A stretch of DNA of 64,000 nt. It comes from Escherichia coli. Its GTDB lineage: Bacteria > Pseudomonadota > Gammaproteobacteria > Enterobacterales > Enterobacteriaceae. How positions within the stretch are numbered: the first letter of the stretch is position 1; every line of letters starts with the position of its first letter. A program made the translations under genes and the position numbers. The notes under the pieces are model-generated. The model did not search any database, was not told the origin of the DNA, and was given only the letters and a program-made list of their open reading frames with translations. Positions 18,223 through 24,586 of the stretch are shown here, in pieces. Location of the stretch: NCBI RefSeq assembly GCF_030384885.1, contig NZ_CP128613.1. One strand, given 5' to 3'.

Positions 18223-18786
18223 ATGAAACTCAAACATGTCGGAATGATTGTCGTTTCTGTGTTGGCGATGTCTTCGGCTGCGGTTAACGCAGCCGAAGGT
18301 GATGAGTCAGTTGCGACCACCGTAAATGGCGGTGTTATTCATTTTAAAGGTGAAGTGGTAAATGCAGCTTGTGCGATTGACTCAGAATCAATGAACCAAA
18401 CGGTTGAGCTGGGTCAGGTCCGTTCTTCTCGCCTGGCTAAAGCGGGTGACCTCAGTAGCGCTGTAGGCTTCAATATCAAGCTGAATGATTGTGATACCAA
18501 TGTTTCCAGTAATGCGGCTGTTGCATTCCTTGGGACTACTGTCACCAGTAATGACGATACGTTGGCGCTTCAGAGTTCAGCGGCAGGCTCTGCCCAGAAT
18601 GTCGGTATCCAAATTTTGGACCGTACGGGGGAGGTATTAATACTGGATGGGGCAACTTTTAGCGCTAAAACTGACTTGATTGATGGCACGAATATACTGC
18701 CATTCCAGGCTCGTTATATTGCCCTCGGGCAGTCAGTGGCCGGTACTGCAAATGCAGATGCGACCTTCAAAGTCCAATACCTATAA
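18223..18786 (+). CDS. Fimbrial major subunit (type 1 / F9-like)
   Basis: Signal peptide [23 protein letters not shown], Cys pair, C-terminal ...FKVQYL donor-strand-type end; GGAG RBS before ATG 18223. Confidence 0.85.
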
Positions 18787-19147
18787 TTGAGTATTCAGGT
18801 GGCTATACGTCATCTGAAATTAAAACAGGGTGTGTGTGGCATGGCTACTCACACCCGAAAAAATTCATCAATGTTTATCTCATTATTACTAAGGAATGAC
18901 TTATATTTTGGAACGATATGAAAAAATCATAGAGTATCTAAACGATTAATAAACAAGGCAGTTAAAATTACTGTGATTTTAAAAATCACTCTGAAGACAA
19001 TTTTTTATTTCAATAGAGAACCAAGTTTTATTACCAGCGCATTAAGTCTGGAAACCCGGCCATCCGCCATAGCATTAGCAATATTTACCATTTTCTGATG
19101 TGACGGTTTCCCCCGCTTAGCCTATCAACACATGGAGAACACATCAG

Positions 19148-19858
19148 ATGCAGACGACTCGTACGCCCTACTCTGTTTCTTTTATGGCGACAGTATTACT
19201 TTCATTGGTCTTTCTTTGCCATAGTACCATTGCCAATGCAGCGGTAGCTCTAGGTGCAACTCGTGTAATCTTTCCAGCAAATCAGAAACAGGTTTTATTG
19301 CCTGTCACGAATAATGATCCTGCCAGTGTCTATCTTATTCAGTCATGGATAGAAAATGCGGGTGACCAAAAAGATACCCAGTTTGTCATTACCCCACCGC
19401 TTTTTTCGATGCAAGGCAAAAAAGAGAATACGCTGCGGATTATCAACGCCACTAATCATCAGTTACCGAGCGACCGGGAAAGCCTGTTTTGGGTAAATGT
19501 CAAAGCTATTCCTGCTATGGAAAAAGATCAGAAAAATGCAAATACATTACAGCTCGCAATTATTAGCCGCATAAAAATGTTCTATCGCCCAACGAATTTG
19601 GCAATGGCACCTGACCAAGCTCCGGAAATGCTTCGTTTCCGCCGCAGTGGTAGCAAACTGACACTTATTAATCCGACCCCCTACTTCATTACCGTAACGA
19701 ATATGAAAGCAGGAAATAACGATCTCCCAAACACCATGGTGCCTCCAAAAGGTGAGATTTCTGTGGATATCCCTCATGGTGCATCCGGGGATATCAGCTT
19801 TCAGACGATCAATGATTACGGTGCATTAACACCGCGTATTAAGGCAACCATGCAGTAA
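19148..19858 (+). CDS. Periplasmic fimbrial chaperone (PapD/FimC-like)
   Basis: 236 aa with signal peptide; position second in chaperone-usher operon. Confidence 0.85.
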   Translation: MQTTRTPYSVSFMATVLLSLVFLCHSTIANAAVALGATRVIFPANQKQVLLPVTNNDPASVYLIQSWIENAGDQKDTQFVITPPLFSMQGKKENTLRIINATNHQLPSDRESLFWVNVKAIPAMEKDQKNANTLQLAIISRIKMFYRPTNLAMAPDQAPEMLRFRRSGSKLTLINPTPYFITVTNMKAGNNDLPNTMVPPKGEISVDIPHGASGDISFQTINDYGALTPRIKATMQ

Positions 19859-19901
19859 CAACTGACCTAATTAATAAGCATAAACTCAATCGGAACTAAT
19901 A

Positions 19902-23097: not shown

Positions 23098-23109
23098 TCA
23101 GAGTGAGAT

Positions 23110-23613
23110 ATGAATAGAACTTTCCAAAGACTTCTGTTGGCTACGCTCTGTGCGCTATTTTCGGCAACTCTCCAGGCCGCTGATGTCACTATCACTGTTA
23201 ATGGTCGGGTAGTTGCTAAACCCTGCACTATTCAAACCAAAGAAGCTAGCGTTAATCTCGGGGATCTTTATACACGCAATCTGCAACAACCAGGTTCTGC
23301 ATCTGGCTGGCACGATATTACTTTGTCATTAACCGATTGTCCGATTGAAACAAGTGCAGTGACGGCAATCGTAACAGGTTCAACTGACAATACGGGTTAT
23401 TACAAAAATGAAGGTAGTGCCGAAAATATTCAAATAGAGCTGAGGGATGATCAGGAGGCGACGTTAAAAAGTGGCGATAGCAAAACGGTTATTGTTGATG
23501 AGATCACACGTAATGCACAGTTTCCACTTAAGGCAAGAGCTATCACGGTGAATGGAAACGCAAGCCAGGGAACGATCGAGGCGCTAATCAATGTGATCTA
23601 TACATGGCAATAA
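23110..23613 (+). CDS. ydeR: Fimbrial minor subunit (167 aa)
   Basis: Fimbrial subunit features; length matches recalled K-12 YdeR. Confidence 0.75.
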   Translation: MNRTFQRLLLATLCALFSATLQAADVTITVNGRVVAKPCTIQTKEASVNLGDLYTRNLQQPGSASGWHDITLSLTDCPIETSAVTAIVTGSTDNTGYYKNEGSAENIQIELRDDQEATLKSGDSKTVIVDEITRNAQFPLKARAITVNGNASQGTIEALINVIYTWQ

Positions 23614-23671
23614 CATCGATTCGATTTTATAAGCCTCTTTTTTAAATCAATTTTTAACCTAAGGATTTATC

Positions 23672-24586
23672 ATGGGAAAAAAAATTAGTATAAATGTCCT
23701 GTTCTGTATTTATTTTCTTTTGATGGCAGGTAAAGTCTTCGCCTTCAGTTGTAATGTTGATGGTGGGTCAAGTATTGGCGCAGGTACAACTTCTGTGTAT
23801 GTTAATCTCGATCCTGTCATTCAACCAGGTCAAAATCTGGTTGTAGATTTGTCTCAGCATATAAGTTGCTGGAATGATTACGGCGGCTGGTACGACACAG
23901 ATCATATTAACTTAGTACAAGGCTCAGCTTTCGCAGGCTCCCTACAGTCATATAAAGGATCGCTGTACTGGAATAATGTGACCTACCCCTTTCCGTTGAC
24001 GACAAATACCAACGTGCTGGATATTGGTGATAAGACACCGATGCCCTTACCGTTAAAACTCTATATTACCCCTGTCGGGGCGGCCGGTGGCGTTGTCATA
24101 AACGCGGGAGAAGTTATTGCTCGCATTCATATGTATAAAATTGCAACGTTAGGAAGTGGAAATCCGCGTAACTTTACATGGAATATTATTTCAAATAACA
24201 GTGTTGTTATGCCAACGGGCGGCTGTACCGTTGATAGTCGTAATGTCACAGTGAGTCTCCCGGACTTTCCTGGAAGCGCAGAAATACCCTTGGGCGTATA
24301 TTGCTCAAGTGAGCAAAAGCTCTCATTTTATCTTTCGGGCGCTACCACTGACAGTGCCCGACAAGTGTTTGCTAATACAGCACCTGACGCAACAAAAGCA
24401 TCAGGAGTCGGTGTCTCCCTGATGCGTAATGGAAAAATACTGGCTACGGGAGAAAATGTCTCCCTGGGAACTGTAAATAAAAGCAAAGTACCCCTGGGCT
24501 TAAGTGCAACTTATGGACAGACAGGAAGCAAGGTCGCAGCTGGAGCAGTACAGTCAGTCATTGGCGTTACATTTATCTATGAATAA
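23672..24586 (+). CDS. ydeQ: FimH-like two-domain fimbrial tip adhesin (304 aa)
   Basis: Aligns by eye along recalled FimH ([20 protein letters not shown] vs [20 protein letters not shown]; C-terminal IGVTFIYE vs IGVTFVYQ). Confidence 0.8.

Follow-up and report, generated by a model that had tools for sequence, protein, structure and literature searches.

The window analysed here, a stretch of 64,000 nucleotides (nt) of contig NZ_CP128613.1 (RefSeq assembly GCF_030384885.1), contains at positions 18223-24586 on the plus strand six uninterrupted, co-oriented fimbrial genes directly upstream of ydeP, as seen in the list of open reading frames (ORFs) and the Pfam matches. We are highly confident that this region is the orthologue, in a genome of Escherichia cryptic clade I, of the F9 (Fml) chaperone-usher fimbrial operon of E. 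coli. The feature is already annotated and experimentally characterised, and none of it is new: the operon, the distribution of its intact and disrupted forms and its disruption in K-12 were published before (Wurpel 2014, PMC3966885).

Genes of the operon and their assignment to F9

The six genes were delimited as follows (window coordinates; aa, amino acids).

18223-18786, plus strand: F9 major subunit (FmlA, a FimA-like pilin), 187 aa; inside ORF 18166-18786; Pfam Fimbrial, E = 5.8e-31
19148-19858, plus strand: periplasmic PapD-like chaperone, 236 aa; Pfam PapD_N, E = 9.5e-40, and PapD_C, E = 6.2e-12
19902-22553, plus strand: outer-membrane usher, 883 aa; Pfam PapC_N, Usher (profile 1-549 of 549) and PapC_C
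22567-23097, plus strand: ydeS, FimF-like adaptor (minor) subunit, 176 aa; Pfam Fimbrial
23110-23613, plus strand: ydeR, FimG-like tip (minor) subunit, 167 aa; Pfam Fimbrial
23672-24586, plus strand: ydeQ, FmlH tip adhesin, 304 aa; Pfam FimH_man-bind, E = 1.3e-77, and Fimbrial

A preliminary description of this DNA had claimed six intact, co-oriented genes including an 883-aa usher. This was borne out, as the six reading frames contained no internal stops and their products exhibited the expected Pfam domains. The components of the chaperone-usher pathway were recognizable in a two-domain PapD-like chaperone and in an usher with N-terminal, barrel/plug and C-terminal domains, the Pfam profiles of both proteins being matched along their entire length. 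The mature chaperone carries R8 and K112, the residues by which PapD-like chaperones such as PapD and FimC anchor their subunits. The major subunit possesses a signal peptide and a pair of cysteines, and the adhesin is composed of a signal peptide (residues 1-24), a lectin domain (25-184) and a pilin domain (185-304). NCBIfam models assigned the ydeS product to FimF (234 bits, cut-off 200) and the ydeR product to FimG (250 bits, cut-off 220). In length, all six proteins agree exactly with their counterparts from two intact alleles, one of a urine isolate and one of strain 042, the latter being given as F9-intact by Wurpel 2014 (PMC3966885). The G+C content was approximately 43% in the operon and 50% in ydeP.

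The start of the major-subunit gene had been placed at 18223, and we reached the same position. A start at 18166, which would yield 206 aa, was rejected, since it lacks a ribosome-binding site and the extension is not conserved. Position 18223 was preferred because a GGAG sequence lies 7 nt upstream, because in the alignment the upstream ATG of the sensu stricto alleles runs directly into a stop codon (ATGACTTAA), and because RefSeq uses 18223. In the RefSeq annotation of a record that is 100% identical (2013C-4282, where the window position equals the locus position plus 9799), the starts and ends of all six genes were equal to ours.

According to Wurpel 2014 (PMC3966885), f9 comprises six genes in identical order, bounded 3′ by ydeP and, beyond a variable region, 5′ by hipBA. 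The ORFs and Pfam domains of the window correspond to this six-gene definition. The immediate 3′ neighbour is ydeP (24935-27214), which is followed by safA and ydeO. In 2013C-4282 hipBA lies just past the variable 5′ region, while in the window the two are separated by a prophage inserted at dif. Thus, the earlier assignment to an F9-type operon at the ydeQRST locus adjoining ydeP was correct. Gene order, the site next to ydeP, the promoter and the six protein lengths are shared with the F9/Fml operons of CFT073 (c1931-c1936), UTI89 (fml) and O157:H7, from which the allele in the window differs by roughly 10% of its DNA sequence and by another upstream variable region. At the protein level the major subunit is 98.9% identical to these operons, whereas the chaperone, the usher and the minor subunits reach 92-94%.

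The adhesin gave the closest link to experimental work. Its lectin domain (residues 25-184) is identical at 159 of 160 positions (99.4%) to FmlH in the PDB entries 6AOW, 6AOX and 6AOY. In FmlH, galactose is contacted by F1, D53, K132 and N140 together with Y46 and R142, and the relevant loops comprise residues 10-15, 44-53 and 132-142 (Kalas 2018, PMC5866590). All six residues were kept in the product of the window, and the sole change in the lectin domain, K120N, lies outside the three loops. FmlH was co-crystallised with the Thomsen-Friedenreich (TF) antigen and plays a role in chronic urinary tract infection (Kalas 2018, PMC5866590); on glycan arrays the F9 adhesin (CFT073/UTI89 alleles) bound Gal-beta1-3-GlcNAc, and plant xyloglucan is given as a ligand of the O157:H7 allele (PMC7766294). 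The identity to FimH amounted to 49%, although FimH had served as the search model when the structure of FmlH was solved (PMC5866590). The suggestion that the adhesin is FimH-like but has a different lectin domain and thus another receptor specificity was therefore right, yet this specificity is already known, because the lectin domain is virtually that of the experimentally characterised FmlH.

We also compared the region with K-12, where ydeT, an annotated pseudogene without N-terminus, is followed by ydeS, ydeR, ydeQ and then ydeP. By BLAST of the window against the K-12 loci, K-12 aligned at 17840-18044 and resumed from 21327, leaving a single junction and the following gap.

18045-21326, no strand assigned: segment absent from K-12, 3,282 bp

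Lost with this segment are the genes for the major subunit and the chaperone, the greater part of the leader and the 5′ 1,425 nt (475 codons) of the usher gene. Hence, ydeT is a 3′ fragment of the usher gene beginning at window position 21327. From there one collinear alignment extended through ydeP and beyond, by which the genes of the window were recognized as orthologues of ydeQ, ydeR, ydeS and ydeT. In both genomes ydeS, ydeR and ydeQ are full length, with protein identities of 92-96% (YdeS 92.6%, YdeR 91.6%). Although the K-12 remnant retains the promoter and the first 73 nt or so of the leader, it is devoid of the major subunit, the chaperone and 475 usher codons and therefore cannot assemble fimbriae. 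The K-12 locus and the BLAST junction agree with the earlier statement that K-12 keeps only ydeQ, ydeR, ydeS and the truncated usher gene ydeT; an operon as complete as the one in the window is not present there.

The state found in the window is not special to this strain. The operon was matched over at least 80% of its length in 3597 of the 5426 complete genomes, a figure that describes DNA coverage and not the integrity of the ORFs. Since so many genomes cover it, an intact operon is the common state, and intact F9 is the majority state of E. coli (about two thirds of the sequenced genomes).

Promoter, leader and intergenic hairpin

Three non-coding elements were located in or near the operon.

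17935-17964, plus strand: f9 promoter, -35 TAGACG, 18-bp spacer, -10 CATAAT; consensus scan and direct reading
17971-18222, plus strand: long AT-rich 5′ untranslated leader, read from the sequence
18828-18856, plus strand: hairpin rich in G+C, within the 361 non-coding nt that follow the major-subunit gene

In CFT073 the promoter (TAGTCG, 18 bp, CATAAT) and the transcription start, a G residue 251 nt upstream of the ATG, were mapped by 5′ RACE (Wurpel 2014, PMC3966885). The promoter of the window resides at almost the same distance from the major-subunit gene. The G at 17971, 7 nt past the -10 region and 252 nt before the ATG, matches the mapped start, and both the -10 region and the start were conserved across three sensu stricto alleles in the alignment.

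The promoter is bracketed by two copies of a 21-nt direct repeat, ATGTTATTTGGC[C/G]ATATAAAA, at 17859-17879 and 17975-17995. One copy is situated approximately 75 nt upstream of the -35 region and the other one at +4 to +24. Predicted H-NS motifs were described at -111/-103 and +8/+14 (Wurpel 2014, PMC3966885), and the two copies coincide with these positions. Judging from this coincidence, H-NS may bind to the repeats in this allele as well, though the two copies might just as well serve as paired operators of another regulator.

In the gap behind the major-subunit gene, no ORF exceeding 44 aa was present, and an Rfam scan of 17000-25200 at E <= 1, which included the gap, disclosed no RNA family. 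RNA folding of 18780-19150 placed the hairpin in both the minimum free energy and the centroid structures (z = -2.85). As in other fimbrial operons, it may be an mRNA-stabilising or attenuating element which sets the ratio of the major subunit to the assembly proteins.

Divergence and origin of the clade I allele

Over positions 17800-25000, the window and the E. coli 2013C-4282 chromosome (NZ_CP027579.1) are 100% identical in DNA sequence. Among the 5426 complete genomes, 18 possessed an F9 region with at least 99% identity, while the others ranged from 80 to 95%, typically around 90%. The distribution was bimodal and no genome fell between 95% and 99%. The locus has its full length in every one of the 18 genomes sharing the allele; one of these genomes bears an IS66 insertion. 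Two of these 18 are documented members of the lineage, since 2013C-4282 and EC42405 were described as cryptic clade I strains (Okuno 2023, PMC10100065). The identical 18 genomes were also nearest for the dosC-dosP flank (98.6-99.4%; next genome 97.2%), and thus the allele tracks the clade I lineage. Compared to 2013C-4282, the window departs upstream of 17144 and is 98.9% identical at dosCP.

The operon is more divergent than its surroundings. DNA identity to sensu stricto strains was about 90% in the operon versus about 96% in the flanks, and the six F9 genes had a median synonymous divergence (dS) of 0.39, compared with 0.15 in 15 genes of the flanks (Mann-Whitney p = 7e-5). When the F9 region (18223-27214) was set against the flank 27462-50486, synonymous divergence from sensu stricto was two to three times higher in the six F9 genes. 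Two sensu stricto alleles differed mutually by a dS of only 0.02-0.10. The raised dS of F9 is possibly due to weak codon bias, to proximity to the replication terminus, or to an older or introgressed allele. The G+C content at third codon positions was 0.38 in F9 and 0.34-0.61 in the flanks, and dif lies 6.9 kb upstream of the operon.

The last of these explanations would mean that the allele was not inherited vertically together with its flanks, but either was imported from an unsampled distant Escherichia lineage or belongs to allele classes that predate the separation of clade I from sensu stricto. The elevated dS, the lower DNA identity of the operon and the gap in the distribution of identities all fit this explanation, which we nevertheless consider rather unlikely. 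F9 and dosCP share their 18 nearest genomes, and low codon bias in the vicinity of the terminus could raise dS without any transfer. Moreover, no intermediate or donor-like usher came to light. A search of 5.8 billion protein sequences, clustered at 90% identity so that clade I and sensu stricto alleles were merged, revealed an E. coli cluster at approximately 94% and thereafter full-length relatives of at most 70% identity, among them no donor candidate.

A pattern-based scan of species-representative genomes with the usher disclosed no F9 orthologue in other Escherichia species. Its matches were Fim-like ushers with 56-60% identity (one with 42%), two contaminant E. coli contigs and one F9-like operon of Citrobacter. 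The two contigs are filed as 'Candidatus Nanosynbacter' (a metagenome-assembled genome; L011) and Terrisporobacter mayombei (L012); their ushers were 93% identical to the query, and they almost certainly represent E. coli contamination or mis-binning. The operon of Citrobacter sp. JGM124 (L006 4191-10756) comprises six genes and resembles F9 in gene order, in nearly equal protein lengths and in a long gap after the major-subunit gene, but its protein identities are only 53-76% (major subunit 76%, usher 69%, adhesin 53% overall and 56% for the mature protein). It is closer to F9 than the fim operon is. Wurpel 2014 (PMC3966885) reported no f9 genes outside Escherichia and Shigella.

The divergence was unevenly spread over the proteins. 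The major pilin and the lectin domain (one change in 160 residues) appeared frozen, whereas a drift of 6-8% was seen in the proteins for assembly and in the tip adaptors. The major pilin was the most conserved subunit, both within Escherichia (98.9%) and towards the Citrobacter operon, whose adhesin is far less similar. In type 1 fimbriae the major subunit FimA is the variable, immune-exposed part; the pattern of F9 is the reverse. A speculative explanation, to which we attach little probability, is that clade I F9 constitutes an anciently diverged or introgressed allele class with frozen pilin and lectin domain, which would fit a use mainly outside the warm-blooded host. If this were true, F9 would operate at low temperature on glycans of plants or the environment; its receptor would constrain it strongly, and antibodies would exert little pressure on it.

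Function, relation to type 1 fimbriae and upstream neighbourhood

By analogy with the studied strains, a sigma-70 promoter approximately 250 nt upstream of the first gene would transcribe all six genes; it would be silenced by H-NS at 37 °C and be active at low temperature. The subunits would be exported via Sec and each be capped by the PapD-like chaperone through donor-strand complementation. The usher would then polymerise them by donor-strand exchange into a rod of the major subunit, tipped by a short fibrillum of the FimF-like and FimG-like proteins with the FmlH adhesin at its extreme end. The lectin domain of FmlH is expected to bind the terminal galactosides Gal-beta1-3-GalNAc (TF antigen) and Gal-beta1-3-GlcNAc, but not mannose.

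Expression and assembly in this strain are predicted by homology to the studied F9 systems, and the probable control by H-NS and temperature as well as the presumed glycan binding follow from published work on CFT073, UTI89 and O157:H7. Several points weigh against equating the operon of the window with those systems. Apart from the major pilin, the structural subunits deviate from their studied counterparts by 6-8% at the protein level, the -35 hexamer is one base off the mapped -35 region of CFT073, and no convincing or canonical intrinsic terminator was found after ydeQ (fold z-score -1.35). Finally, K120N sets the lectin domain apart from the studied FmlH and might affect binding, even though its pocket is predicted from the sequence to be retained.

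All six genes are under strong purifying selection. Relative to a sensu stricto allele, dS was 0.20-0.46 and the ratio of non-synonymous to synonymous divergence (dN/dS) 0.03-0.21 across the six genes (major subunit 0.03, chaperone 0.08, usher 0.08). In the lectin domain, 36 synonymous changes faced a single non-synonymous one (dN/dS 0.006). These values bear on the question whether the intact ORFs merely represent a silent relic, permanently repressed or unable to assemble, whose degradation is yet to come. In the studied strains F9 is silenced by H-NS at 37 °C and barely expressed in wild-type laboratory culture; furthermore, the operon is dispensable, being deleted or disrupted in about one third of the E. 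coli genomes, and the mismatch in the -35 hexamer may be added to this. A relic, however, would drift towards a dN/dS of 1 and gain stops, whereas low values were obtained for each gene up to a dS of 0.46 and for the lectin domain in particular, and none of the 18 genomes with this allele has a shortened locus. Purifying selection and full-length loci argue strongly against a decaying relic, and we regard a silent one as very improbable.

That the locus is a second copy of the mannose-specific type 1 (fim) operon, as the RefSeq labels fimA, fimF and fimG and the name 'FimH, mannose binding' of the Pfam adhesin domain would imply, can practically be dismissed: the adhesin is FmlH (99.4% in the lectin domain) rather than FimH (49%, and no NCBIfam match), the NCBIfam models for FimC (255 versus a cut-off of 327) and FimD (854 versus 975) were both missed, fimI is lacking, with no ORF of more than 44 aa in the 361-nt gap, and the locus lies at ydeP and not at the fim locus. 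The upstream ORFs encode an ankyrin-repeat protein and gene fragments but no fimB or fimE. For an invertible element of the fimS kind, only short AT-rich inverted repeats were detected, none of which flanked the promoter, and a recombinase gene was absent. The RefSeq names are misleading because the NCBIfam models for FimA, FimF and FimG exceed their cut-offs. F9 resembles the type 1 system (fimAICDFGH) in its fimbrial clade, in the assembly mechanism and in the two-domain fold of the adhesin, with subunits and usher about 50-60% identical, but it differs by the missing fimI, the missing fimB/fimE/fimS phase switch, a galactoside instead of a mannose pocket and its regulation by H-NS and temperature.

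In urinary tract infection, the F9/Fml adhesin system has been validated as a target, both for vaccination and for anti-adhesive galactosides. Cryptic clade I, lately flagged as a source of human intestinal pathogens, keeps F9/Fml intact and, as far as the residues indicate, has the same receptor pocket; inhibitors aimed at FmlH can for this reason be expected to recognise clade I strains too. By using the names fimA, fimF and fimG, the automatic RefSeq annotation confuses F9 with type 1 fimbriae; apart from putting the annotation right, the result is of little consequence.

The region in front of the operon (15118-17840) contains a gene for an ankyrin-repeat protein, a kind of protein uncommon in E. 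coli. Read from a GTG start, this protein has 654 aa in the window, against the 460 aa of the 2013C-4282 annotation. Behind its gene lie fragments of helix-turn-helix, IS481 transposase and alpha/beta-hydrolase genes. It is this stretch that Wurpel 2014 (PMC3966885) described as varying between strains on the 5′ side of f9. Farther upstream, the ORF 12992-14425 on the minus strand harbours at 13111-13770 a 60-nt (20-aa) repeat in eight or more tandem copies, whose mutual identity is 61-75%. This hypothetical protein has 477 aa here and its homologue in 2013C-4282 has 568 aa, so that the copy number of the repeat varies among close relatives.

Positions 1-11290 of the window are occupied by a tandem filamentous (Inovirus-like) prophage at the chromosome dimer-resolution site. 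Strain 2013C-4282, otherwise almost identical, has no such prophage at the corresponding place. Among the RefSeq features covered by the matches are a Zot-domain protein, a secretin N-domain protein, an attachment protein and a II/X replication protein. The sequence 1-2701 recurs at 8576-11276 with 100% identity, so that one prophage unit measures 8,575 bp. The 28-bp dif site of E. coli is present in exact form at 11263-11290, and a hybrid dif-like junction near 2688-2720. The prophage appears to be an element integrated by XerCD, similar to CUS-1 and Ypf-phi.

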